Origin: a virus
Lineage: Duplodnaviria; Caudoviricetes
DNA length: 64,000 nt
Direction: 5' to 3' (one strand)
Virus record (IMG/VR): IMGVR_UViG_3300027734_003164
Coordinates: 64,001-128,000 of that record
The notes under the pieces: generated by a model
What the model saw: only the letters and a program-made list of their open reading frames with translations
The model's database searches: none
Told to the model about the DNA's origin: nothing
Part shown: one piece after another, positions 26,752 to 63,985 of the stretch
How positions within the stretch are numbered: the first letter of the stretch is position 1
Layout: every line of letters starts with the position of its first letter
Position numbers and translations under genes: made by a program

Positions 26752-27222
26752 TTATCTAAAAGACAAATTTTGACGACAATATAATTGGTAGTTTTGTTTT
26801 TTTCCGTCAGTCTCTACCCTAATTATCCCTTCAAATTCGACTAAACCTTCTTCGTTCACTTTTTCTAATGAAGTACCACCTCTTACTAATCTTTGTTTTG
26901 CTCTAAGCTCAAAAGTTTCACCAGGGTTTACGGTAAAAGGAACTTGTTTATCAATTCTCATACCGCTATTCATAGGAAGAATCTTTTTTATGGTGATTGG
27001 TGCACTTCCAGAATTTTTAATACCTCTAAATGTAAATTCAATATCTTGTCCAAATCTAACTTCAGCATCTGGATTTCTCACAACCAATGTTCCTGTTAAA
27101 GGTCCTCCCATCCCTTTAGATGTTGCTGGGTTAGGCATCCCAATTGGTCCTTCTTGCTCATTAACAACTTGTCTAACAAGTTGAGTTAGTTCAGATTCCG
27201 TAAGTCTAACAATTCTTTTCAT
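26752..27222 (-). CDS. hypothetical protein with LTESEL N-terminal motif and Ig-like (ASH/DUF1573-like) domain
   Basis: MKRIVRLTESELTQLVRQVVNEQ; FTFRGIKNSGSAPITI...FTVNPGETFEL. Confidence 0.7.
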   Translation of the reverse strand: MKRIVRLTESELTQLVRQVVNEQEGPIGMPNPATSKGMGGPLTGTLVVRNPDAEVRFGQDIEFTFRGIKNSGSAPITIKKILPMNSGMRIDKQVPFTVNPGETFELRAKQRLVRGGTSLEKVNEEGLVEFEGIIRVETDGKKQNYQLYCRQNLSFR

Positions 27223-27250
27223 AATATTTTAATTTATTTATAAATATGTT
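27216..27250 (-). promoter_or_regulatory. 35-bp start/upstream element duplicated at 27922-27956, containing palindrome TATTTATAAATA
   Basis: Identical TTTTCATAATATTTTAATTTATTTATAAATATGTT (plus-strand text) at both loci. Confidence 0.8.
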
Positions 27251-27274
27251 GTTTTTTTATAAAATTAAATTTTT

Positions 27275-27928
27275 TTATCCCAAATTATTATTCATTCTTG
27301 ACCCCAAAGACGCAAAATCTGCTTTTGGTACAGCATTCCCTTTAAAATTATATGAACACATTTCATCAGTTATTAATGTTATCATTTGTTTTCCAACGGA
27401 ATCTATTCCTCCACTAACAAATGGTCTTTTATAGTTACTAATCAACATTCTATAATAATCTTTTCGTTCTTTTACATCCATTTCATAATCATTTTCAAAT
27501 TTAAAGTCAGAAAATCTTCTTAAAAACATTTTCCAAGCATTAGGTATACCTGAATCAAAAAGTTTATATATATCATTCCAATCTGAATATTCTTCTTTAA
27601 ATTCATCAATTTCCACTCTAAAAGTATTTTTTGAATTACAAGTATATTGTAATTTAATATTGCCAGGATAATCATCACCGTTTGGTTTTTTTCCTTTTCC
27701 GATTAATGTTAAGGTATTGGAGTCTTCACTAATTTCTATTTTATCTACCATAAATTGTCTTATAATTGGGTCGGTATAGTCATTTGGTAAATAAAAATTC
27801 ATAGTTTTATCTTGAAATAAATCGTAAAATTTATTTATAAGTTGTATTCTTCTTTCATCATCTTCTAAAATAATTCGTTTTACAATTCGAGTTAAATCAG
27901 ACTCAGTTAATCTAACAATTTTTTTCAT
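27275..27928 (-). CDS. hypothetical protein with LTESDL N-terminal motif
   Basis: MKKIVRLTESDLTRIVKRIILED. Confidence 0.75.
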   Translation of the reverse strand: MKKIVRLTESDLTRIVKRIILEDDERRIQLINKFYDLFQDKTMNFYLPNDYTDPIIRQFMVDKIEISEDSNTLTLIGKGKKPNGDDYPGNIKLQYTCNSKNTFRVEIDEFKEEYSDWNDIYKLFDSGIPNAWKMFLRRFSDFKFENDYEMDVKERKDYYRMLISNYKRPFVSGGIDSVGKQMITLITDEMCSYNFKGNAVPKADFASLGSRMNNNLG

Positions 27929-27978
27929 AATATTTTAATTTATTTATAAATATGTTATTTTTTTAAAAATTTAATTTT

Positions 27979-30799: not shown

Positions 30800-30829
30800 A
30801 TTTTATAAATATATTTTTATAAATTTATT

Positions 30830-32404
30830 TTAAGATAAACCTATTTTTTGTAAAGGCATATACTTTGGTGACCCGTTTACACTTATACCGTTACATGTTG
30901 ATGGGGTTATGGTTACATTTGTTATTGTTACAGTATCTAAAATATAACCTTCAAGTTGACAACCGTTAAATTCTATACTTGGAGTATTAATAAACTGAGT
31001 GATGGTTCCGTTTATAATTCCTCCCGATGAAATACTTGCAGTGTATGTGTTTGTAAATGAACTATAATTTATATTAGATAAATTACAAGAAGGTCTACTT
31101 TGTGAACTAGTAGTAACCACCGAGTTTGTCGGTGTACTTAAAGTTGCATTACCTGATGTTGTTGCGGTTATAGAATTTGTAATAACAGGTACGTTTGTTA
31201 CAAAAGTTTTTCCTGTAAATCCAACGGCAGTATTAATTGTAAAGTTTACTGTTTTTCCTGCTGGTAATGTTGGTGTAACGTTTATTTGATAATACCAAGT
31301 TTTGGTAGTTGTAGTACCAACATTAGTTTGATTTGCCAACGGAGTTAAACTTAAATTAAGTGTATAGTTTGTATAAGAATTTTGTGGTGTAAGTGTTACT
31401 GACTGAGTTGTTACTGTGTTATTAGTATCTTTTATATAAATTGTATAATTGCCGGCAGCCAAACCTAAAAATGTATTTGACATTTGATAATTAACACCAT
31501 TGATAGAATAGGTGTAAGATGGAACTCCTCCATATCCGGTGACATTAATTACACCATTAGATGTGTTAGAACAAGTTGGTTGTGTTGTTGAAACTGATAA
31601 TGTTAATGGTGGTGTTGTACATACACCTGTTGATACAAATACAGTACCTTGATATGTTCCAAGTAAAGACCAATTACCTGTAGGTGGTGTTGTTGGTTGT
31701 AATAAAGCGGGAACACCAGGATTAGTCCATCCACTAACCTCCCATCTTGTATTTCCTGTACTATATAATACCGTATAAGTTGAACTTGTCCAAGACGGGT
31801 AACCATTGATTGTTGAACCGCTAGTTAAAGTAGTTAAATACGTTGTATTAAAAGAAGGTGTATATTCAAAACATAAGTTTTGTGGGTATACAGGTGCTGG
31901 TGTCGGTGGAGGTAAACAATCTGAACAAGTGTCAAATGGTCCTGTAGATATTACCGCAAAATTATTAATATAACTTTGTCCTGTATATAATGTTTGACCG
32001 CTATGGGTCCAACAACCAACTTGACTTGTTAAACTATACACTTTACCATCGACGAATTTTGAAGGTAAATCTGCAACATAATAAACAAAAGTTCCTGAAT
32101 TTTCACAGTCTTCAAATTGTTCCAAATAGAAACTATCATAATCAACCGAACAAGTTGTTTGTCCTGTAAAATCACCATAATAATCTATAACTGTTGCCGT
32201 ATAATTACCAGGTAGTAAATTAGTAAGTAAAGAACCTTGTGCCCCGTTACTCCAATTTATAGTATATGGTGGTGTTCCTCCTGTTACATATAAGGTTATT
32301 AGACCATTAGTTGAATCAGGTGTTGACGCATTAATACTATCACAATCTAAACCTAATGGTAGAAGTGTTATTATATTACAACTATTTCCACTTAATAACC
32401 CCAT
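30830..32404 (-). CDS. SprB-repeat virion/adhesin protein
   Basis: VTGGTPPYTINWSNG...LLPGNYTATVID and GGVPSYTYSING...GLAAGNYTIYIKD. Confidence 0.75.
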   Translation of the reverse strand: MGLLSGNSCNIITLLPLGLDCDSINASTPDSTNGLITLYVTGGTPPYTINWSNGAQGSLLTNLLPGNYTATVIDYYGDFTGQTTCSVDYDSFYLEQFEDCENSGTFVYYVADLPSKFVDGKVYSLTSQVGCWTHSGQTLYTGQSYINNFAVISTGPFDTCSDCLPPPTPAPVYPQNLCFEYTPSFNTTYLTTLTSGSTINGYPSWTSSTYTVLYSTGNTRWEVSGWTNPGVPALLQPTTPPTGNWSLLGTYQGTVFVSTGVCTTPPLTLSVSTTQPTCSNTSNGVINVTGYGGVPSYTYSINGVNYQMSNTFLGLAAGNYTIYIKDTNNTVTTQSVTLTPQNSYTNYTLNLSLTPLANQTNVGTTTTKTWYYQINVTPTLPAGKTVNFTINTAVGFTGKTFVTNVPVITNSITATTSGNATLSTPTNSVVTTSSQSRPSCNLSNINYSSFTNTYTASISSGGIINGTITQFINTPSIEFNGCQLEGYILDTVTITNVTITPSTCNGISVNGSPKYMPLQKIGLS

Positions 32405-34302: not shown

Positions 34303-35910
34303 TTAACATACTCCGTTTACTGTGCAAAACTCGGTGATTACACCACTGTTGTCGACACTATAAATTTTATTTCCGTATCTAATATAATCAATCGTTAATG
34401 GATATAATAACGATGAATTACTATATACTGTCACTCCTGTTTGTATTTGATTAACTGATGGATGGGTGTAGAATATTGTTTGTACTCCAAAATTAGTCAA
34501 CTGACATCCAGGACAATTTACTGAATACGCCCCACTACCAATCCATTCGTTAAATGTACCAACTAATGGTTCAACTTGTAGACACTCGGCACAATCAACA
34601 TAAGTTGTGGTGGTAGTCGCTGTAAATCTATTTTCATTTACCACAATATAACCTGAAGGTGGAACATAATTTATAAAGTATCCTACATAACTATAACAAT
34701 TTCCAGAATAATCTCTAATTACTTCTCCTGGGTCTAAATTAGTTGGTGGGGTTGCTGTTTGTGTAATCATCGATGTTGTCGTACAAGATGTAAACACAAA
34801 GTAAGTACCAGGTGCGTAAGTAGGTGTTGGGGTTGGTGTTGGTGTAGGTGTCGGAGTCGGTGTAGGTGTCGGAGTCGGTGTAGGTGTAGGTGTTGGGCAA
34901 ATCGTACAAGCGGTATATGCTGAAACCACTAACTTAACTGTTGCATTAGGACTTGCTGTTGTATCTTGTATATATGTTGCACATTTTAATTGGTCATTAA
35001 TAACCCCTAAGAATGTTTGTCCTGTTGATATTGGTGTGCCTGATAATTCCAAAGGACCTGAAACGTAATAAGAAACGTTTTCGTTACAATCTCTTAATTC
35101 CTTAACTCTAAAACATATAAAGTTTCCATCGTCTATTGTAAATGTTACAGTTTCACCAGTCAAATTGATTGTTGGTGTAGGAGTGGGTGTTGGGGTTGGG
35201 GTCGGTGTTGGTGTTGGTGTTGATGCACTAACACTAATGTTTACTGTAAAAGCACTACATATATTTGGAGTGGGTGTTGGTGTAGGAGTCGGGGTTGGTG
35301 TTGGTGTAGGAGTCGGGGTTGGTGTTGGTGTCGGCGCATCACAATCAACATCATATGAAAAATCAAAAGTATCACATACAGGAGTTGGTGTTGGTGTTGG
35401 GGGAACACAATCACCAGGATAAAATAAGTCGGTAAAAAGGTTTGGACAAACAGAAGTCGTTGGGTTTTGTCCGTAGAAGAAACAATTTGTACCAGGTGCT
35501 GTGCCTAAACACCATTTTGTAGCTCCTTTATAGATATACCCCGGTTGTGTTCCACCTGTGAAAAAGGGGAATCCGTTATATCCTCCCGCAACAACATATG
35601 TTCCAGTATATGCAGAATATTCATCTTTATTTATTACAACACAATATTTATTAGAACAACATTCTCCTGTTGCACAACTTGAGGCGGTACATCCTGTTTG
35701 TAGTCCATATGTTCCATTAGGCACATAACTTGTTGCAGTAAACCCTGACGTAAACGCAGATACAATCGAATAACACCCACTTACAACAGACGTATCATAA
35801 GTAATAAGATAAACAGAAGTGACGGCCGATGTTCCAGCAGTCCAATTAGTTTGGTTTGTAAAATATCGTAAACCGGGGTAACAACAACTCTGTAAAAGTA
35901 TATTTGCCAT
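34303..35910 (-). CDS. Cys-rich, Pro-Thr-repeat (mucin-like) virion protein
   Basis: Four (PT)n tracts separating Cys-rich domains. Confidence 0.8.
34820..35403. repeat. (Pro-Thr)n coding tracts at ~34820-34897, 35171-35220, 35266-35334, 35380-35403
   Basis: ggtgtt/ggagtc/ggtgta hexamer runs. Confidence 0.92.
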
Positions 35911-35954
35911 TAAATTTTCTTTTTATATAAATAACCCAAAGTTTTTTTTTGCAT

Positions 35955-36752
35955 TTAAAACTCCAAATTTATTTCTTCAGGTTTATAACTGTAAAAATGT
36001 TTGTATGCATGAATAAATGCAACATTTTTTTGTTCTTCCATAGGTACTGACCATCCTGTTTTATCCCACCAATTTCCTATATTTTTGTCTTCGTATTGTG
36101 ACCAATCATCCCATGGCCCCCAAGTAAATCCAAAAAATTGAAATAAAAATGAAAGAGTTGCATCGCACCATTCCACAGGTCTTGAGTCTAATTTATATAT
36201 TTCGTCCCAAGGTACTTCATCTAATCTATTATATATTTCTATAAACTTTTCTCTATTAAAAATTGCACCGCCGCAAGCTCCGTAATTTTCCAAAGACCCT
36301 AATTCACTCCATACATGTCTTGAATTGTCTTTAACATTAAATTTATTTTTTAGATATTCATATAATTCTTTTGTGTAGTAAGGTCCATGTGCCCCTGATA
36401 TATCAAACTTTGGTGGTCTTGTTATTTCACATTTACACCAAACATCATCTTCATAATGAATAACCCAATCAACATCTTTAAGTGTTGTTTTACAAGCATC
36501 ATATATTCTTGTCAACCACCGATATAACCCATCTTTATCCACAAAAACTCTACCTGAATGTAGGTTATTAACTCCTTGTTGTTCAATCCAAGTGTAGTCA
36601 CAATTAAATTTTTTAGCCACAGGTTCTAATAACTCTGAACCATCTTCAAATAAAGAAATAGGCACGTTTGGATAAAATTTTCTAAGCCGTTCAATTGCTT
36701 TATAACACGCAACTAATTTATGACCTGATTGGTAAAAAACCCCTATATTCAT
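35955..36752 (-). CDS. glycosyltransferase, GT-A fold
   Basis: ISLFEDG, WVIHYEDDVW (DxD-like), GACGGAIFNR, WCDATLSFL; overlaps the GT60 gene stop. Confidence 0.65.
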   Translation of the reverse strand: MNIGVFYQSGHKLVACYKAIERLRKFYPNVPISLFEDGSELLEPVAKKFNCDYTWIEQQGVNNLHSGRVFVDKDGLYRWLTRIYDACKTTLKDVDWVIHYEDDVWCKCEITRPPKFDISGAHGPYYTKELYEYLKNKFNVKDNSRHVWSELGSLENYGACGGAIFNREKFIEIYNRLDEVPWDEIYKLDSRPVEWCDATLSFLFQFFGFTWGPWDDWSQYEDKNIGNWWDKTGWSVPMEEQKNVAFIHAYKHFYSYKPEEINLEF

Positions 36753-37990
36753 ATTTCACCTGTAATTTGTTTAACCCAACCATTTTGTCTATGGTGTATC
36801 CAAATTGACCAACTTTTTGTTGTTCTATCCACCAAGAATGTTCTTTTTATATTTACGTAATCACTTTTTACTTCATATAATTCTTTGATTTCATCACTAT
36901 TGGCATCTTGTCTATAAATTTCATTTCCTAAATCGTCCAAAAATGAAATTGCCCAAAAATCATAATCATCTTCAGGAGCCTCTAATCTTGGAACAATTAT
37001 ATTATATGTAAACATAAAACTTTCTGACTTATACCATTCAGAACTATCATTAACAGGTGGATTTTCACCTTTCAATGTCTTTGGATGTAATTTTCTATCT
37101 AAAAAATTAATACCCGCATACAATTCATAATCACGATGAGTTCTTACATTACCTAATCCATATTCCCCCAAGTCAATACCATGGTCTTCTTCTTGTAACA
37201 TGTGTCTAAGTCTTATTTTGGACTTAGTATCCATTTCCCACCATGGTTCTTCAACTACCCCACTTTGTTTGTTTTCCTCATTAAAATCCGTCCAATGTTT
37301 TGTTCTACCTTCTCTTGTGTATTCATGCCAAACAACTGTTTTATGTGGGTGAAATAAATCATAACCTAATGTGTATGACCTAATAGATAAACTGATTTCA
37401 TCACCAGCAAAGTAAATATTTGGGTCGTACTTATACTCTTCACAATGTTTTCCAATCGTAAAGAAAAAGTGACCGCTAACAAATCTTGCAGGAATTGGTT
37501 TATCTAACTCTTTCCAATTTGGGATTTCGTGAGGTCTAAAAAGTATTGTTCCTCCCGGTGTAAAATTAGATGCAACCATTTTGTATGGTTCAACATTTAA
37601 TAATTTATTAGTTTTTGGTTCATACATACCCGCATATGCGGTAATGATTGGTTTTTTTGAACCTGTCATTTTCATCATTTCAATTAACTCAACATCCCAA
37701 TTCTGTAAGAATCTATGGTGTGAATCTAATTGTAATGTGTATTCTTCTCCGTTCCATAATTTTTGAATTTCTGAACGAGCCCAACACAGTCCTTTACTTT
37801 TTGACCAATGATAATCTAATATTTTGAATCTTTCGTCATTTGCAAATTCTCCCATAGATTCATTTTCATCTCGTTGCCAACAAATACCAAAGGTTAAATT
37901 CTCAGGGTTTTTTGCCTTTGAAATGCAGTCTCTGATTGTCGGTAAAAGTTCGGGGTCTCTATAAGACGCAATTTGGACAAATATTTTCAT
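36749..37990 (-). CDS. GT60-family GlcNAc transferase (Skp1 Gnt1 / trypanosomatid polypeptide GlcNAc-T-like)
   Basis: IFVQIASYRDPEL, SKGLCWARSEIQKLWNGEEYTLQLDSHHRF..WD, FVSGHFFF, FAGDEISLSIRSYTLGYDLFHP. Confidence 0.85.
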   Translation of the reverse strand: MKIFVQIASYRDPELLPTIRDCISKAKNPENLTFGICWQRDENESMGEFANDERFKILDYHWSKSKGLCWARSEIQKLWNGEEYTLQLDSHHRFLQNWDVELIEMMKMTGSKKPIITAYAGMYEPKTNKLLNVEPYKMVASNFTPGGTILFRPHEIPNWKELDKPIPARFVSGHFFFTIGKHCEEYKYDPNIYFAGDEISLSIRSYTLGYDLFHPHKTVVWHEYTREGRTKHWTDFNEENKQSGVVEEPWWEMDTKSKIRLRHMLQEEDHGIDLGEYGLGNVRTHRDYELYAGINFLDRKLHPKTLKGENPPVNDSSEWYKSESFMFTYNIIVPRLEAPEDDYDFWAISFLDDLGNEIYRQDANSDEIKELYEVKSDYVNIKRTFLVDRTTKSWSIWIHHRQNGWVKQITGEI

Positions 37991-38037
37991 ATTATCATTT
38001 TAAACAAAAATAATACCTCAAGACTAAAAATAAATAA

Positions 38038-38820
38038 TTAAACTTGTGTGATTGTAACAATCAAAGATGGAATGGCCGGTCTAGTGGGTGATGTAAAAGG
38101 TCCTGCGTCATATTGTAAACCTAATCGTGTGTCATCTACTCTAAATTTTAATTCTAAAAATTCATTGGCCGAAAGGTCCATTACAAAATTCCAAGCGGCC
38201 ACAGCTCTACCATTATTAGAATTTACTACAATTTGCGTATTTGAGTTAGTAACATTACTACCATTTTTAGCCAACCATATATCCATAGTTTGTGCTGAAC
38301 CACCACCTGTTGATTCTAATTGAGCAGAAAATTGTAAATTATAAACACCAGCACTTGCAACAACAAATTTTGTATTTGCCGATAATGTTACACCATTAGA
38401 ACCAGTATTGGTGTCTGCACTCATAGAAAACGCGCTAGTGGTGCTTGAAACATATTGGTCCGTTGTGGACAAAAAAGACCCCCATGCTCTACCACTACCA
38501 TTAACACCACTAGTTCCGTTAGTTCCGCTAGTCCCATTTGTACCACTTGTACCGTTAGTTCCGCTAGTTCCATTTGTACCACTTGTGCCGTTAGTTCCCG
38601 AGGACCCGCTAGTTCCATTTGTACCACTGGTTCCTCTAGTTCCTGACGACCCATTAGTACCATTTGTTCCTGAAGTTCCAGCAATTGATGCAGTTATAGC
38701 ACTAAATCGTACAGCTTCAGTTCTACCCGATGTTATTGGGTTGTAATTAACAATTACCAATAATGAATTAGAGTAACCTGTTGATGCTAAGGGTAAGGAT
38801 GATATTGGTAAATCTGGCAT
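38038..38820 (-). CDS. collagen-like (Gly-Thr-Ser/Asn) fibre protein with C-terminal beta-sandwich
   Basis: About 19 Gly-X-Y triplets GTS/GTN at ~38510-38682; C-terminus FVVASAGVYNLQFSAQL resembles BclA-C/C1q-type domains. Confidence 0.75.
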   Translation of the reverse strand: MPDLPISSLPLASTGYSNSLLVIVNYNPITSGRTEAVRFSAITASIAGTSGTNGTNGSSGTRGTSGTNGTSGSSGTNGTSGTNGTSGTNGTSGTNGTSGTNGTSGVNGSGRAWGSFLSTTDQYVSSTTSAFSMSADTNTGSNGVTLSANTKFVVASAGVYNLQFSAQLESTGGGSAQTMDIWLAKNGSNVTNSNTQIVVNSNNGRAVAAWNFVMDLSANEFLELKFRVDDTRLGLQYDAGPFTSPTRPAIPSLIVTITQV

Positions 38821-38843
38821 AGTCTTTTATAGATAAATATTAT

Positions 38844-39131
38844 TTAAGTTATTTTGATTCTAAAACCATCTTCCTGTAATATATAAAAACCAGTTTCTTG
38901 TAATAAATAACTTCCACAATCCACTTCTATTTCCATGATACAACCGTTCGCATCAATAATTTTTATATATATAACATCTTCATTTGGAAAAAAAGATTCT
39001 GAATTAATAACTACATTTGGTGGTATTGAAGTAACTCCTGACACATAAAAACAATAGGTATTTGATGGGTCACAAATGAAAACATCATAAGGACTTAATC
39101 CGCTAGTTACTCCTGTTATTTGTATATTCAT
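38844..39131 (-). CDS. small Cys-rich SprB-like domain protein
   Basis: VTSGLSPYDVFICD...IKIIDANGC; C-terminal LLQETGFYILQEDG. Confidence 0.65.
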   Translation of the reverse strand: MNIQITGVTSGLSPYDVFICDPSNTYCFYVSGVTSIPPNVVINSESFFPNEDVIYIKIIDANGCIMEIEVDCGSYLLQETGFYILQEDGFRIKIT

Positions 39132-39134
39132 ATA

Positions 39135-39344
39135 TTAACAATTTATTTCATAAAAAGTTTCACAACCATTACCATTAATCGCTTTTATTATTAAGGTATT
39201 TGCTGCAGAATAAAATGCAGATAAAACATAAACGGTAAGTGTTGTACCAAGTAATGAACAATTATTTCCGTTTTCATCACAAACGTAATAACTAACGGGT
39301 GGTGTTCCTCCTGTCAATCCTGTTATGTCAACTGAGTACGGCAT
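39135..39344 (-). CDS. small Cys-rich SprB-like domain protein
   Basis: LTGGTPPVSYYVCD...IKAINGNGC. Confidence 0.6.
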   Translation of the reverse strand: MPYSVDITGLTGGTPPVSYYVCDENGNNCSLLGTTLTVYVLSAFYSAANTLIIKAINGNGCETFYEINC

Positions 39345-41648
39345 CTATGTATAACAAGTTACATCGTAGTCTATTGTTAATTCTAAAGTGAAATTAGCGT
39401 CAGCCAGTGGGTCAGTATCACCCTCACAATTTGACTCAATGTGAATTGTATTATCCGTCAAACTTATAGTATAACTACTAATATCAGTAACACCACTTAA
39501 TATTCCTTCTATTGTTGATTGCCAAATTGTGTCTTGTGGAATATCATTCAATGTTGTTGCGGTATAGAATGTTTGAGTAAATGCACTTCCGTTAATATTC
39601 ATTTCAAGTATAAATTCTGCGGTATTTAAACTACATCCCGTATATCCACTTGTAACATCAATATACCCCTCATTTAACATTTCTAAAAATCCACGTTTAG
39701 CCCCAACTGTTGTTGCAAATTCATTTTGACACAATTCAACAACAGAGTATGTTGTTACATTATTTCCTGAACATGTGATTGTAAAATTGTGAATTTGTGA
39801 ACACCCACTACTATCTGTAACTTCAACAGAATACGTACCGGCGGTTAAACCGGATATAGTTGAACCCGTTTGTCCTGACGGAACATTATCTGACCAATCA
39901 TAACTAAATGTTGGTTCTCCGTCGTATATTAATACTTGCGCGGTTCCATTTTGACCACCATAACATTGTGTTGTTGATATTGCACTAATTAAACTACCTC
40001 CCGTTGATATTGTTACTTGTTCATCAATTTGACATCCATCCGCATCAACAACTGTGAGAGTATAACTACCAGCCACTAAATTATTAAAGGTATATGAAGA
40101 TAATGATGTATCTAAAACTGATTGTCCATCACTTAATATATAATCCAAAGGTGATGTATAACCAGTTCCGACTTGGACTTGTAAAACACCATCATTTTGT
40201 GAACATGTTGAACCTGTTGTTGTTGTATTTATTTCAAATTTATCGGTTGATGATAATGTAACAGTTGTTCTGTACTCACAATTTGTTCCTGTTGCAGATA
40301 TTATTAAATCATACGTGTCATTTGTCAACCCTAAAAAGGTGTTGGTTAAACTTTGCGTTGTGTTAGTGTATACTAATCCGTTTGTTTGACCCGATAAAAT
40401 ATAACTATAAAAATTATTTGAACCTTGTAATGAAACAGTTAATGAACCAAGTTGTTGGCTACAATTAGAGTTTGTCACCACTGTATCAACTATGAAAAAT
40501 GAATTTTCAGCATTAATAAACGCACTTAATATTTGTTTACAAAAGTTTGCATCTGTTATTTCTAAATTGTAATTTCCACTTGATAATCCTGATAAGGTTA
40601 ATGTATCACTTAATGTATACCCTACTTGTGATGTACTGGCGGAATAATAATAAGGAACACTACCTCCTGTAATTGTAAATGTAATACTACCGTCCGATGA
40701 AAAACAAGAAGGATTTATAGAAGTGACAATACCAACTCCAAGTGGGTCGGCTTCACCTATAGTATCACTTTTAGTTACTACGCATCCATTTCCGTCCGTT
40801 ACTGTACAACTATAAGTTCCAATTGTTAAACCTGTTATTGTTTGACCCGTTTGACCGTCATTCCAAAGATATGTGTAAGGTGGTGTTCCTGTAAGACCTG
40901 TGATTGAAAGTTTTCCCTGATTAATGACACAAGTAGACGTATTTACTTTCCAAAAACCAAAATCAAAATTTGAAGAGGATGAAATAATTGCGTTAGATGT
41001 TGTTGCGGTTGACAATCCATAATCTACAACTTTAACAAAATAAGTGTCTGCGGATAAATTTGTGAATGTATATGGGAATAAAGTGGTAACTTGTGATTGT
41101 ATAGAACCTCCTGATGTGGATAATATTAAAGTATATGGCGACATTTTAGAGTCGGCACTTACGGTCAGTGTTCCGTTATTATTTCCACATGTGGTTGGTG
41201 TTACGTCAATAATATCGGTATAAAAACAACCTGTTATTATAACATTTATATATAATTCGTTATTTTCAAACCCTTCAGAATCATTCAATCTAAACACATA
41301 GGTGTCGGCGGTTAGTCCTGAAAAGGTTATTGGGCTTGAAGATGTTTTAGCGCTTATTCCACCAGGTTGTATATTATCTATTGTATATGGTGGTATTCCA
41401 CCATATGGTGAAAATGTTACAGAACCTGTTGGGGATGAGCAAGTACCTGTAATTGTAAATGTTAGTCCTAATGGTTGGTCGTCACAAGTTGGTGTACAAG
41501 CGGACATTGTGTTATAAACACCAAATGTTGATGCCGAATACGCACTATCAAAACAAATAGTTTCCCCTAAAGAAACTCCAACTACAAAGTTACCACAACA
41601 ATCATAGTACCTATATACCCCATCCGTTAAACCTGAATAACAAGCCAT
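39345..41648 (-). CDS. multi-SprB-repeat virion protein
   Basis: About 7 repeats such as TGTPPYTYLWNDGQTGQTITGLTIGTYSCTVTDGNGC. Confidence 0.8.
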   Translation of the reverse strand: MACYSGLTDGVYRYYDCCGNFVVGVSLGETICFDSAYSASTFGVYNTMSACTPTCDDQPLGLTFTITGTCSSPTGSVTFSPYGGIPPYTIDNIQPGGISAKTSSSPITFSGLTADTYVFRLNDSEGFENNELYINVIITGCFYTDIIDVTPTTCGNNNGTLTVSADSKMSPYTLILSTSGGSIQSQVTTLFPYTFTNLSADTYFVKVVDYGLSTATTSNAIISSSSNFDFGFWKVNTSTCVINQGKLSITGLTGTPPYTYLWNDGQTGQTITGLTIGTYSCTVTDGNGCVVTKSDTIGEADPLGVGIVTSINPSCFSSDGSITFTITGGSVPYYYSASTSQVGYTLSDTLTLSGLSSGNYNLEITDANFCKQILSAFINAENSFFIVDTVVTNSNCSQQLGSLTVSLQGSNNFYSYILSGQTNGLVYTNTTQSLTNTFLGLTNDTYDLIISATGTNCEYRTTVTLSSTDKFEINTTTTGSTCSQNDGVLQVQVGTGYTSPLDYILSDGQSVLDTSLSSYTFNNLVAGSYTLTVVDADGCQIDEQVTISTGGSLISAISTTQCYGGQNGTAQVLIYDGEPTFSYDWSDNVPSGQTGSTISGLTAGTYSVEVTDSSGCSQIHNFTITCSGNNVTTYSVVELCQNEFATTVGAKRGFLEMLNEGYIDVTSGYTGCSLNTAEFILEMNINGSAFTQTFYTATTLNDIPQDTIWQSTIEGILSGVTDISSYTISLTDNTIHIESNCEGDTDPLADANFTLELTIDYDVTCYT

Positions 41649-45504: not shown

Positions 45505-45536
45505 TTTTTTATTTTATAAATAGTTTATGTCTTTTT

Positions 45537-54095: not shown

Positions 54096-55934
54096 TTAGT
54101 AGAAGTCTACAGTTCTAAGTTGTTTCACCCTTACATTAATATCTCTAGAATCAAATCTGATTTGATATATTTGGTCTGGTTCGGCAAATAAGGTGTTGTC
54201 AATTAATAAAATTTCTTTGGTTTCCGCATCGGCGTACCTTTGAGATGTTTCAGATGACGAATATTGACCACCTGTTCTGTTATATATTTTCAAATCTGTT
54301 AATGTATTAACACCAGCAACGTCTTGTATTAATCTTCTAATATCAGAAACGTTTACATTTTGACCTAAATCTCTGTTTTGTGGATTCATGTAAGTGGATA
54401 CTTGGTCAATAATTTGAGTAATTATTTGACTTTGAGCGGTATTATTTTCGATTACAACAGATATTTCAAACTCTAAATCTATTACCTTTGCGACATCAAT
54501 TGATATGTAGTCATTTATCATTCTATACTTAGACAAATAAGTTGCCAAGTTTGTTTTAATTGCGTTTGGAACTGTTTGTGTTAGATTCCCGTCTGAATCA
54601 TATGATAAAATTTGTACAGTAACTTTGTTATTATTTTCTGTAATCGCGACTTTGGCAGGTGCCCCAAATTTACCTGGCATTGTATCGATTAAAGATTTAT
54701 AGTCATTAACTGTCACCGCTCTTTTTTGTGCCGCAAAGTTAAAACTAACCATGTTTCTTGCCTCTTCAATTGTTGGTTGGTTTGCTCCTCCAACCGCACT
54801 TGTTACATTATTAATTTTTAATGATTGTACAACACTTTGATTGATTTGTGATGATGGTCCGTTTACCGCTAAATTAACTAATCCAACTTGGTTGATTGAA
54901 CCAACACCAACATTTGATGCGGTTCCTCCCCCTACTCGGTACTGTACAAATAGTGTTGAGTTAGGTGTTACTGTAAGTCCCAATCCGATATTATTTTGAT
55001 AATTTTGTATTTTTAATGGGGTTCCAAGATTTGCAAATTGTTGAAGTTGTTGATTTGGTGTTGTTGTTGCCGCCCCAAATTGTACCTTCATATAACTTTC
55101 GGGTGTGTATTCTGTTATAAATCTGTTGTCTGTTTTTATATATTGACCAACTTTAACCCCTGCGTTGTCTATTGGTTTTGTTGGGTCCTCAATAAAAACT
55201 GTATCTTCCGCCAATGCGTCAACTTCATACCATTTATTCTGTGACGTTATAAATTCAGCGTTTGTTGGGGTTGATTGGTATTGTGTTCCGTCTTTTTGTA
55301 TGATTGTTGTAACAGACAAAACATTCTTTTCAGGTAAAAAGAAACTATAGAAAGGAACTACGTCTGCGGCATTTACAACTTGTTTATATATTTTAGTAAC
55401 ACCATTAACAACAACTTCTCTTTTAGTTATTATATAACTTGTTATTTTATTATTGTTGTCAAAAACAGGGGTTTTGGTTCTATTATTTACCCCTTCGTTG
55501 TTATATTGTGTAGAAAAATCAACATCATAGACTGTTTCAAATGTTTGCCCTCCACCATTAAACTGAGCCCCCGCTCTTAAAATACCTAAGTATCTTGAAT
55601 CTTCATTGTCACCAAATGCCGGAACTTGTATTGATATTTCCACAAGGGCAACTGAAGGTCTAAATCCTGGTATTTTTAAACCATAAGTTCTTGCGATATT
55701 GAAAATAGAAGACCTTTGTTGCGCATATTGTAAGACAGTTTCTTGAATACTTCTATCGATATGAAAATGTAAATTATCTCCAATTGCGGCATTTAAATCC
55801 ATCAAAACTGAAAAGATTGAAGCGTCATTAAAGTTTTGAATTATTTCAGGATAATACTGTTGGGTATAATTAATTAAGTCATTTCTTAGACTTTCAAAAT
55901 CCCTACTAGTATAATTAATTTTTTGAGTTGCCAT
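54096..55934 (-). CDS. baseplate wedge subunit (T4 gp6 / baseplate-J-like)
   Basis: YTSRDFESLRNDL, SIFNIARTYG, YRVGGG, GGANQPTIEE, AQKRAVTVNDY. Confidence 0.88.
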   Translation of the reverse strand: MATQKINYTSRDFESLRNDLINYTQQYYPEIIQNFNDASIFSVLMDLNAAIGDNLHFHIDRSIQETVLQYAQQRSSIFNIARTYGLKIPGFRPSVALVEISIQVPAFGDNEDSRYLGILRAGAQFNGGGQTFETVYDVDFSTQYNNEGVNNRTKTPVFDNNNKITSYIITKREVVVNGVTKIYKQVVNAADVVPFYSFFLPEKNVLSVTTIIQKDGTQYQSTPTNAEFITSQNKWYEVDALAEDTVFIEDPTKPIDNAGVKVGQYIKTDNRFITEYTPESYMKVQFGAATTTPNQQLQQFANLGTPLKIQNYQNNIGLGLTVTPNSTLFVQYRVGGGTASNVGVGSINQVGLVNLAVNGPSSQINQSVVQSLKINNVTSAVGGANQPTIEEARNMVSFNFAAQKRAVTVNDYKSLIDTMPGKFGAPAKVAITENNNKVTVQILSYDSDGNLTQTVPNAIKTNLATYLSKYRMINDYISIDVAKVIDLEFEISVVIENNTAQSQIITQIIDQVSTYMNPQNRDLGQNVNVSDIRRLIQDVAGVNTLTDLKIYNRTGGQYSSSETSQRYADAETKEILLIDNTLFAEPDQIYQIRFDSRDINVRVKQLRTVDFY

Positions 55935-55936
55935 AA

Positions 55937-56401
55937 TTATATGTTAATTATTATAAATTCACTTGAACCAAACGAATTGTTGTCGTCCGTATAATCTATT
56001 GTAAGTTTAGCTGTGTATTCTTGAGTTGACCTACCAGGTATTCTATATATATCACTTGTTCCTAATAACTCTTGGTTAATGTCACCTGGAGCCTCATCTG
56101 ATTGTAAATATGGAACCACTTTAATTTCATTTATAGTTAAATTTGGTATGTACTTGTCAACCTGTTGTTGTATTTCAGATTTGATTCCGTCAAACGTTTC
56201 ACCATCCAAAGGGTCAAAAATAAATTCATATATACGTGTTCCAAAATCAGGATTATAGTATCTACTACCTCTTGCGGTTAATATCAAATGTAAAAGGTCT
56301 GCCCGTATCTCATCACCAGCATTTTCGGTTAAATCAAAATAATAAGATTTTGGACTATCCCTAAAAGGGAAATTAATACCATAAGTTCTTCCATCTGCCA
56401 T
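55937..56401 (-). CDS. baseplate wedge subunit (T4 gp25 / GPW family)
   Basis: GINFPF, LLHLILTARGSRYYNPDFGTRIYEFIFDP. Confidence 0.88.
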   Translation of the reverse strand: MADGRTYGINFPFRDSPKSYYFDLTENAGDEIRADLLHLILTARGSRYYNPDFGTRIYEFIFDPLDGETFDGIKSEIQQQVDKYIPNLTINEIKVVPYLQSDEAPGDINQELLGTSDIYRIPGRSTQEYTAKLTIDYTDDNNSFGSSEFIIINI

Positions 56402-62735: not shown

Positions 62736-62756
62736 TTTTTTTGTTTTTAATTGTTA

Positions 62757-63764
62757 CTACTCTACTTCTTCTTTTTCTGCTTTCAAATCAAAGTCACCAT
62801 CAACTCCGATTATTTCCTTCCAATACTCGGCATATTCTTTTTTGTATTGTTCGATTGATGCCTTTTCTTCGGAAGCTTCTTTTCCTGGTAAGAAACCGTG
62901 TGGTGTTACGATAATCTTTCCATCTTCAAAACCAAGTCCGTTGATGTGATTTTTCATAACAGACACCTTAGTTCTTGATGCAAACTTAACAGTTCTCTTA
63001 TCTTTAGTTGCTGTAATTTTTGTTGTACCAGCTCCTTTTTGATTTCCAAATAAGAATACTAATGAAGAGTTCAACCAAATAGCCTCACCACCTTTTGCTT
63101 TAATTTTAGGTTGTCCGAATGGATTGTCAGGTAATTCAACCCAAGGTTGATTAACAATGATTAAGGTATTTTCGTATTTAGAGTCAGCTTTACGTGAACC
63201 TGAAATACGTTGGTTAATACCCATACCAATCTTGTCGGCCAAAACACTTGCGTTGTGTTGTTTACCTCCTTTACCTTCGTAAGTCATTTTACAAGGAACA
63301 GAACCAACTGAGTCCCACATAATACACAATGAATAATCAATATCACCCTTTTCTTGAGCGTCTAATAAATCATTAATGTAATCTGTGATTTGTTCAATAT
63401 AATCAAAGTTATTATTGAATATATAAAAACCATCCCACTCTAATTCTCCTGTTTCTGTGTCAACAACTTCTTCACATTCAAACCCCATTAACTTAGCGTG
63501 GTCAAACGACCATTTTTGTTCAGTGATGATAAATACAGGTAAAATACCTTTCTTCTGAGCATCAACCGCAGTCTTAACTAATGCCGTTGTCTTACCCGTA
63601 TCTGAATGTCCTAAGAACATATTAATGTGTCCCATAGCAGGACCAGGTAAACCAACCGCATCCAAAAACGGAGAGCCAAGGTCAAAGAATCTTTGTGGTT
63701 TATATTTTGCAGAGGTAGAAAACTTTTTTTTCAAAGACCCAAAGTCGTTCTTTTTAATAGCCAT
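62757..63764 (-). CDS. RecA/UvsX-like recombinase
   Basis: Walker A GHSDTGKTT, ITEQ, WDSVG, IVNQ, KAKGGEA, KNHI. Confidence 0.9.
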   Translation of the reverse strand: MAIKKNDFGSLKKKFSTSAKYKPQRFFDLGSPFLDAVGLPGPAMGHINMFLGHSDTGKTTALVKTAVDAQKKGILPVFIITEQKWSFDHAKLMGFECEEVVDTETGELEWDGFYIFNNNFDYIEQITDYINDLLDAQEKGDIDYSLCIMWDSVGSVPCKMTYEGKGGKQHNASVLADKIGMGINQRISGSRKADSKYENTLIIVNQPWVELPDNPFGQPKIKAKGGEAIWLNSSLVFLFGNQKGAGTTKITATKDKRTVKFASRTKVSVMKNHINGLGFEDGKIIVTPHGFLPGKEASEEKASIEQYKKEYAEYWKEIIGVDGDFDLKAEKEEVE

Positions 63765-63985
63765 TATTGTTCGTAAATTTTAAAATTTTTTATAGTTTCC
63801 AACTTATCTTTTGCGTCTGTAAGTTGTGTGACTAAATTATCCATTTCTTCGGTGTGTTGTGGATGCTCACCAATACCAACAGGGTTTGTGAAATACACAT
63901 ATAATCTTGCTTCTGCATCTGCAATTTCAGACTCGTATTTTTTCACAAGAGCATCTTTTAATTTTTCTGCTAAAAATATGTTCAT
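63764..63985 (-). CDS. conserved phage hypothetical protein (73 aa)
   Basis: LVKKYESEI..A...VYFTNPVGIGEHP motif; stop overlaps the recA-like start. Confidence 0.7.
   Translation of the reverse strand: MNIFLAEKLKDALVKKYESEIADAEARLYVYFTNPVGIGEHPQHTEEMDNLVTQLTDAKDKLETIKNFKIYEQ

Follow-up and report, generated by a model that had tools for sequence, protein, structure and literature searches.

A putative phage-encoded module for mucin-type O-glycosylation of virion fibre proteins, centred on a GT60-family enzyme

What would a phage do with an enzyme of a polypeptide-glycosylating family that is encoded among its fibre genes? This question is raised by positions 34303 to 38820 of a 64-kb stretch of viral DNA (Caudoviricetes; positions 64,001 to 128,000 of IMG/VR record IMGVR_UViG_3300027734_003164), which was analysed over its whole 64,000 nt and is called the window below. 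Here a gene for an enzyme of glycosyltransferase family 60 (GT60) and a gene for a second glycosyltransferase are placed between those of a protein with Pro-Thr (PT) tracts and of a collagen-like fibre protein. Weighing family membership, predicted folds and the gene neighbourhoods of relatives, we consider it probable that the locus equips the phage to O-glycosylate its virion fibre proteins in mucin-type fashion, within the cytoplasm. Each of the four genes is an intact open reading frame (ORF) on the minus strand; they are transcribed in the order collagen-like gene, GT60, second enzyme and PT protein, and the features of the module are as follows.

38038..38820, minus strand: collagen-like fibre protein, 260 amino acids (aa), possible second acceptor (Pfam Collagen, tail-fibre PHROGs)
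36749..37990, minus strand: GT60-family polypeptide alpha-N-acetylglucosamine (GlcNAc)-transferase-like enzyme, 413 aa (PF11397, phrog_24687, fold)
35955..36752, minus strand: second glycosyltransferase, 265 aa, GT-A, GT6/ABO-like shape (predicted fold)
34303..35910, minus strand: 535-aa multi-domain protein with 28 Cys and 18.5% Thr, candidate glycan acceptor
35380..35403, minus strand: PT tract 1 of this protein, residues 170-177 (8 residues)
35266..35334, minus strand: PT tract 2, residues 193-215 (23 aa)
35170..35220, minus strand: PT tract 3, residues 231-247 (17 aa)
34819..34896, minus strand: PT tract 4, residues 339-364 (26 aa)

Two glycosyltransferases and their candidate acceptors

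The 413-aa protein belongs to the PF11397 'GlcNAc' family, which is GT60 in CAZy, with a match at E 2.7e-67 (228.2 bits, cut-off 21). The protein further matched phrog_24687 at E 6.6e-106, and its homologues from relatives likewise match PF11397. Across 15 diverse GT60 sequences (alignment A1) the residues D89-S90-H91 were invariant and constitute the DxH motif. The protein is laid out as a catalytic GT-A domain (residues ~1-321) followed by an extra beta-rich C-terminal domain (~322-413), and the best structural matches of residues 1-321 were the catalytic domains of GT27 polypeptide N-acetylgalactosamine (GalNAc)-transferases, with a Z score of 19.1 and a root-mean-square deviation of 3.4 Å over 257 residues, compared with Z 15-17 for most other GT-A enzymes. 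The best 50 Foldseek matches of the model were all polypeptide GalNAc-transferases, as were the best ~30 matches of a second fold comparison with one exception, while searches of the PDB with the GT60 sequence and with a GT60 profile gave nothing meaningful. Transfer of alpha-GlcNAc to a polypeptide hydroxyl is the likely activity of the phage enzyme, a prediction drawn from family precedent and gene neighbourhood.

The C-terminal domain (36749-37030) occurs in two unrelated sequence types that do not follow the catalytic part. The GT60s of L013 and L014 are 86-88% identical to that of the window in the catalytic part and ~20% in the tail (86% vs 19% for L013), whereas for L045 the figures are 50% (catalytic part) and 61% (tail). 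The evolution of the domain is thus independent of that of the catalytic domain, in a manner resembling module shuffling, and it may be a targeting module; a language-model atlas search with the domain returned no usable match. In metagenomes, the GT60 family comprises at least 7,496 protein clusters, all of them without a name. Among metagenomic proteins, some of ~780-870 aa (P0125-P0136) score about twice as high as single GT60s and may be tandem or fused GT60 enzymes; some of them are also annotated with a GT2 domain.

The start of the 265-aa gene overlaps the GT60 stop by four bases (ATGA). Its product was without a Pfam match up to E 0.1 and matched no PDB entry by sequence, and its 123 metagenomic homologues are all unnamed. 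The structural model is of high confidence (predicted local distance difference test score, pLDDT, 91.6), and its best 50 Foldseek matches were all GT6 ABO or alpha-1,3-galactose transferases (E 8e-9, probability 1.00, template-modelling score ~0.49), with 12-15% identity in the structural alignments. The GT-A fold closest to GT6 is accompanied by a DxD-type motif, E101-D102-D103, which was invariant in 30 homologues (alignment A2). Given this low identity and the lack of any Pfam or PDB sequence match, the enzyme is GT6-like in fold and, by sequence, not a GT6 member.

In the 535-aa protein, four (PT)n linkers separate Cys-rich domains, and no other ORF of the 64-kb window has a PT run of 8 or more residues. 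Its tracts are written in mixed codons, which argues that they are kept by selection on the peptide and not by DNA slippage. A language-model atlas search with its C-terminal domain gave no usable match. Among relatives, PT linkers are found in differing fibre proteins, such as an SprB-repeat protein with a 38-aa tract (L038) and a 982-aa protein (L013 and L016). The other candidate acceptor, the collagen-like protein, contains 21 G-X-Y triplets (8 GTS and 8 GTN) at residues 48-110 (38491-38679) with a globular C-terminal domain after them; it scored 36.3 bits with PF01391 Collagen (cut-off 27.2) and matched tail-fibre PHROGs at E down to 1e-11. No signal peptide and no hydrophobic or transmembrane segment was found in either enzyme or either candidate acceptor, consistent with cytoplasmic glycosylation ahead of assembly.

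An initial annotation of this DNA had described a GT60-like GlcNAc transferase gene overlapping a second GT-A gene, the pair being flanked by a protein with four PT tracts and a GTS/GTN collagen-like fibre within the structural block. The family match together with the GalNAc-transferase-like fold bears out the former enzyme, and the ATGA overlap together with the GT6-like GT-A model the latter; all four ORFs were found where it had placed them, and baseplate wedge genes, SprB-repeat proteins and a match to a virion-structural PHROG, all detailed below, agree with a position inside the structural block.

Linkage of GT60 genes to PT-tract proteins

GT60 and PT-tract proteins are linked across the lineage of the window and in unrelated phages. 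In a GT60-anchored sample of 46 IMG/VR loci, with GT60s 48-97% identical, a homologue of the PT protein stood next or next-but-one after GT60 in ~35 loci. Immediately upstream of GT60, the window and ~17 of the 46 loci carry the collagen-like gene; since only part of the relatives have it at this position, the link of GT60 to this fibre is the weaker one. In the 292-kb genome G002 (99% complete), all 27 matches of a (PT)5 DNA pattern lie at 60835-64287, in two genes flanking GT60 (62747-63943), and none was found elsewhere in the 292 kb; (PT)5 runs surround GT60 in the same way in the larger contigs G003, G004 and G006. The association was also seen after relocation of the gene, since in G018 (98% complete, 295 kb) GT60 lies ~175 kb away from the fibre cluster and a 1313-aa LamG protein encoded upstream of it contains one of just two (PT)4 runs of that genome, at a distance of 760 bp from GT60. 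Furthermore, L031, L037, L039 and L044 showed no match to the fibre-block genes, yet their GT60 abuts unrelated PT-tract proteins, one of them on the opposite strand.

Reciprocally, 80 IMG/VR loci (734 kb in total) were picked only for a (PT)8 run, and six of them contained a GT60 homologue; five of these six GT60s are only 28-33% identical to the window clade, and for four the distance to the run is at most 3.5 kb. GT60 is single-copy in all three near-complete relatives (G002, G018 and G034) and in 30 of 40 large contigs, all GT60-negative contigs being fragments of 10-56% completeness. Co-occurrence of GT60 with PT-repeat genes, which the initial annotation had named as a check on its proposal, was accordingly found within the lineage, after relocation and in unrelated phages, with exceptions that are weighed below.

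A different family was observed at one locus, where a 194-aa homologue of GT29, a sialyltransferase family, is encoded directly upstream of the PT protein (L144:8669-9256, minus strand); it lies on the strand opposite the PT protein, in the slot otherwise occupied by GT60, and the contig is without GT60.

GT60 homologues were found in just 4 of 50,697 GenBank phage records, compared with six of the 80 (PT)8 loci; cultured phages with GT60 include XacN1, Xoo-sp13 and the Stenotrophomonas phages CM1 and RAS14. ORF334 of Xanthomonas phage XacN1 is one such homologue, 39% identical to that of the window, and its operon (AP018399.1 216551-223508) comprises GT60, a carbamoyltransferase, two unknown proteins and a 546-aa HtrL_YibB protein. 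ORF334 lies ~9 kb from the gene of a 3313-aa protein, which itself adjoins baseplate wedge genes and bears the sole (PT)5 run in the 385-kb genome. XacN1 virions contain at least two Schiff-stained glycoproteins, and phage transferases were proposed as their makers by the authors (PMC5852040).

The proposed pathway and its rivals

In the pathway that we propose, the soluble GT60 would put a first N-acetylhexosamine on hydroxyls in the (PT)n linkers of the neighbouring 535-aa protein. By family precedent this sugar would be alpha-GlcNAc taken from host UDP-GlcNAc, the acceptor residues would most likely be Thr, and there may be further targets among the other Thr-rich fibre proteins of the block, the collagen-like fibre included. 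A second sugar would then be added by the GT6-like GT-A enzyme, whose gene is translationally coupled to that of GT60, and the glycosylated linkers would form extended, protease-resistant spacers with exposed glycans. Among related phages, swaps of the extending enzyme would diversify the glycan structure.

The genes that follow GT60 vary between relatives. Even in close relatives, GT60 is followed by no further enzyme, by a GT6-like or HtrL_YibB enzyme, by GT2, GT32 or GT25 enzymes or, in a further variant, by a DUF3431 protein and two unknown proteins. In L045 the fibre genes are ~90% identical to those of the window, and the catalytic domain of GT60 has been exchanged, as has the extender. 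A conserved GT60 with swapped next enzymes fits a fixed initiator with interchangeable extenders, and a glycan pathway under diversifying selection. The initial annotation had held that GT60 initiates and the second transferase extends glycans on both PT and Gly-Thr repeats; the first part of this fits the conserved GT60 with a variable enzyme after it, while the part concerning the collagen-like fibre is weakened by the limited distribution of its gene.

Two further arrangements of extending enzymes were observed. The pairing of GT60 with HtrL_YibB recurs in distant phages (L045, L048, L199, L142 and L143). In G018, GT60 stands first in a cluster (72000-79970; L141:1-7970) of eight or more genes for glycan building, which includes GT10 and GT11 fucosyltransferase-like enzymes, an FkbM methyltransferase, GT25, GT61 and unknown proteins, families that are typical of eukaryotic or blood-group-type glycans.

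Several points weigh against the O-glycosylation module proposed here. The AlphaFold model of GT60 is of moderate confidence (pLDDT 76). The distance between GT60 and the PT runs is ~75 kb in G019 and G022, 10 kb in L034 and 136 kb in phage Xoo-sp13, a relative of XacN1 with a lone (PT)5 run, and in both XacN1 and Xoo-sp13 the GT60 gene has those for DNA polymerase and RNaseH as neighbours. GT60 without a PT run was seen in the 58-kb fragment L040/L049, and the 30-32 kb fragments G014-G016 have the PT protein and no GT60 on the contig, one of the three with a GT29-like gene in its slot. Most of the adjacent cases are of common ancestry and not independent, the number of independent contexts being ~8-10. 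The phage is uncultured and the module is known from its genes alone; donor and acceptor are predicted from family precedent and gene neighbourhood only, and it is from gene position only that the 535-aa protein is taken as a probable virion component.

These points leave room for other readings of the same genes. The enzymes might glycosylate virion proteins other than the PT protein, such as the GTS/GTN fibre, SprB-repeat, capsid or tail proteins rich in Thr and Ser, with the PT tracts as mere linkers. The collagen-like gene that immediately precedes GT60 (the window and about 17 of the 46 loci) would suit this idea, as would the richness in Thr and Ser of every protein of the block, and bacilli O-glycosylate Thr-rich collagen-like exosporium fibres such as BclA. 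In mycobacteriophages the acceptors known are capsid and tail-tube C-termini (work cited in PMC12619734). However, most relatives are without a collagen-like gene at that position, PT-tract proteins stay adjacent to GT60 after its relocation and in unrelated phages, and the PT runs of G002 are found nowhere else in its 292 kb, and we hold such a choice of acceptors to be unlikely. Quite unlikely, in our judgement, is the building or altering of a non-protein glycan, whether by modification of host lipopolysaccharide (LPS) or capsule in the course of infection or by making a free or lipid-linked oligosaccharide. Related clusters do hold families of LPS or O-antigen type (GT25, GT11, GT10, HtrL_YibB and the FkbM methyltransferase), and GT2-type polysaccharide enzymes are the next-best structural matches at Z 15-17, yet the proteins are without membrane segments, no flippase, polymerase or initiating phosphoglycosyl transferase was found in the clusters read, all characterised GT60 enzymes act on polypeptides (PMC8724618), and this reading would not account for the tight linkage between GT60 and PT-tract genes. 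The same linkage finds no explanation in glycosylation of phage DNA, in which hypermodified bases would evade restriction. This is the classical and a common role of phage glycosyltransferases, and GT60 is near DNA polymerase genes in XacN1, Xoo-sp13, L034 and L037; nevertheless, the family and the closest folds are those of polypeptide transferases, and in the lineage of the window the gene is inside the fibre block with fibre genes on either side. No DNA glycosyltransferase family was among the Pfam, PHROG and fold matches, no search having been aimed at base-hydroxymethylation genes, and a 2026 paper on glycosylated hydroxycytosine makes no mention of the GT60 family. In our judgement, a role in DNA modification is highly improbable.

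The remaining alternative concerns the acceptor residue, as the prolines of the PT tracts could be hydroxylated and GT60 would then add GlcNAc to hydroxyproline (Hyp), comparable to the Skp1 pathway of Dictyostelium and Toxoplasma. Gnt1, the founding GT60 enzyme, acts on Hyp (PMC8724618), and other phage lineages (L188, L217, L222 and L160) pair a short GT60 with an oxygenase of the prolyl 4-hydroxylase (P4H) type. In the lineage of the window, however, searches with PF13640, PF03171 and phage P4H homologues found no P4H-type oxygenase in the window, in G002 and G034 (two of the three near-complete relatives) or in any fragment that was searched, whereas the third such relative, G018, gave a single weak match (E 2e-4) ~210 kb from GT60; radical SAM and carbamoyltransferase homologues were likewise not found in the window. 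Since no P4H gene but this weak and distant match was found, Thr is the likelier acceptor in this lineage, as for the mucin enzyme of Trypanosoma cruzi, and we regard a Hyp acceptor there as very unlikely. Modification of Thr in the PT linkers by GT60, followed by a second sugar, is the reading that we retain.

The pairing of GT60 with a prolyl hydroxylase had not been foreseen by the initial annotation and was seen in four unrelated lineages from the (PT)8 sample, where a short GT60 (~290-320 aa, without the C-terminal domain) occurs with a PF13640 oxygenase. The oxygenase adjoins GT60 in L188:838-5744, L217:2-4099 and L222:1-4208 and lies ~4 kb away in L160:56-5495. Three of the four lineages also encode a radical SAM/SPASM enzyme, with a PT-tract protein nearby, and in L160 a carbamoyltransferase stands beside GT60 as in XacN1. 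This gene set is possibly a phage version of the Skp1-type Hyp-GlcNAc pathway.

Genomic setting and relation to known systems

The window belongs to a jumbo phage and covers part of its genome, with ~30% G+C and nearly every gene on the minus strand. Genes for ribonucleotide reductase, DnaB, an exonuclease and a UvsX-like recombinase occupy 56-64 kb, and downstream of the baseplate genes follows a series of large Thr/Ser/Cys-rich proteins within which the glycosyltransferase block lies. The other features of this region are given below.

54096-56401: gp25-like and gp6-like baseplate wedge genes
39345..41648, minus strand: 767-aa SprB-repeat protein, fibre or adhesin-like (PF13573 match; its counterpart in L038 has the 38-aa PT tract)
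38844..39344, minus strand: two small Cys-containing domain proteins of 95 aa and 69 aa
34008..34298, minus strand: third small Cys-domain protein, 96 aa, paralogue of the other two, conserved directly after the PT protein
30830..32404, minus strand: 524-aa SprB-repeat virion protein (PF13573; phrog_26672, virion structural protein)

The three small paralogous Cys-domain proteins (95, 69 and 96 aa) border the module on both sides. In relatives, their homologues are joined by a PT linker to a second Cys-rich domain, such PT-extended proteins being encoded directly upstream of GT60 in L013, L016 and L022, and in L142 the small Cys domain stands at the head of a 1754-aa protein. The locus had no match among GenBank phages by megablast. 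Freshwater and lake metagenomes of 15 studies contained near-identical DNA, with no RNA run among the public runs holding window-like DNA. The nearest IMG/VR record is a 96-kb fragment with an estimated completeness of 32%, from which a genome of roughly 300 kb can be estimated. In a 2025 paper, four core glycosyltransferase gene families were described for freshwater jumbo phages with predicted Bacteroidota hosts (PMC12619734).

As for possible promoters, the candidate late-promoter sequence TATAAATA was not enriched in the window. The motif TATTTAT was found 11-48 nt upstream of many minus-strand starts (for example at 35911-35954, 38821-38843, 30800-30829 and 45505-45536), with 17 of its 33 minus-strand copies falling within 5% of the sequence. 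The genes for the collagen-like protein, GT60 and the PT protein are preceded by the motif, as is the DnaB helicase gene, and it is a candidate phage promoter core that is not specific to structural genes; since it also precedes the helicase gene, it is no proof of late expression. Elsewhere in the window, the genes at 26752-27222 and 27275-27928 share a near-identical upstream region, ACATATTTATAAATAAATTAAAATATT (27223-27260 and 27929-27966), and their first codons, and differ in their bodies.

Looking beyond this lineage, we raise only tentatively, as something we doubt more than we believe, that mucin-type O-glycosylation is widespread and unrecognised in environmental phages. GT60 would initiate on PT linkers, and eukaryote-like extenders (GT6-like, GT10, GT11, GT25, GT29-like, GT32 and GT61), swapped like cassettes, would build mucin- or blood-group-like coats on fibres that diversify under selection. 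A second flavour, with a short GT60, a prolyl hydroxylase and a radical SAM enzyme, would yield Hyp-linked glycans comparable to those of Skp1 and of plant cell-wall proteins. Should the module act in the way proposed, many abundant freshwater phages would carry self-made glycans on their host-recognition fibres, with effects on adsorption, host range, protease resistance and recognition by defence or immune systems, and a glycosyltransferase family supposed to be protist-specific would be central to a viral system, raising questions on the origin of mucin-type glycosylation. Being small and soluble, with a simple repeat as the predicted acceptor, the enzymes are also candidate tools for glycosylating PT-tagged proteins in bacteria.

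Our literature search found nothing that links GT60 to phages, and the closest known relatives of the module are found in protists. GT60 enzymes are polypeptide alpha-GlcNAc-transferases that are related to GT27 and initiate mucin-type O-glycosylation in protists, usually without the ricin-like targeting domain of GT27 (review, PMC8724618). With Dictyostelium Gnt1, the pp-alphaGlcNAcTs and the T. cruzi mucin O-GlcNAc transferase, the phage enzyme has PF11397, the GT-A fold and the DxH motif in common; Gnt1 is soluble and cytoplasmic, as predicted for the phage enzyme, the acceptors are Thr/Pro-rich repeats, as predicted here, and further transferases act after the initiator. Unlike these enzymes, it is phage-encoded, has an extra, independently shuffled C-terminal domain of ~95 aa and comes from a lineage with no prolyl hydroxylase found. 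The animal GT27 enzymes, which gave the best structural match of the catalytic domain, act on dense Thr/Ser/Pro repeats and have a C-terminal targeting domain in a two-domain layout comparable to that of the phage enzyme; they differ in belonging to another family with 12-17% sequence identity and in being Golgi membrane proteins with a ricin-type lectin domain.

Cytoplasmic O-GlcNAc initiation on the Ser/Thr-rich repeats of a fibrillar surface protein, with a conserved initiator and strain-variable extenders encoded beside the substrate gene, is known from the serine-rich-repeat adhesins of Gram-positive bacteria and resembles the proposed module. That system is bacterial and not viral, its initiating enzymes GtfA and GtfB are a GT4 pair of GT-B fold, and its substrate is exported by the accessory Sec system. 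The PT linkers of bacterial cellulases are classic carriers of O-glycans, by which they gain protease resistance and extension; unlike in the proposed module, they are glycosylated outside the cytoplasm by host enzymes. Glycosylation of proteins of the phage particle has, to our knowledge, been shown only for mycobacteriophages and is suspected in a few other phages. Giant viruses encode their own enzymes for self-glycosylation, as the window would, for the PBCV-1 capsid and the fibrils of Mimivirus (PMC5852040), with other transferase families and other acceptors. In mycobacteriophages, as described where PMC12619734 cites Freeman et al. 2023, the structural proteins of the phage are modified, ahead of assembly, by glycosyltransferases that it encodes itself. 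The placement of glycosyltransferase genes beside structural genes in the window fits such virion self-glycosylation; the mycobacteriophage system is experimentally proven, has other hosts and, as that source has it, modifies capsid and tail-tube C-termini, whereas the window has been read from its genes. Phage virion glycosylation itself therefore has a precedent in the mycobacteriophages, and what is new here is the putative variant of it that is based on GT60.

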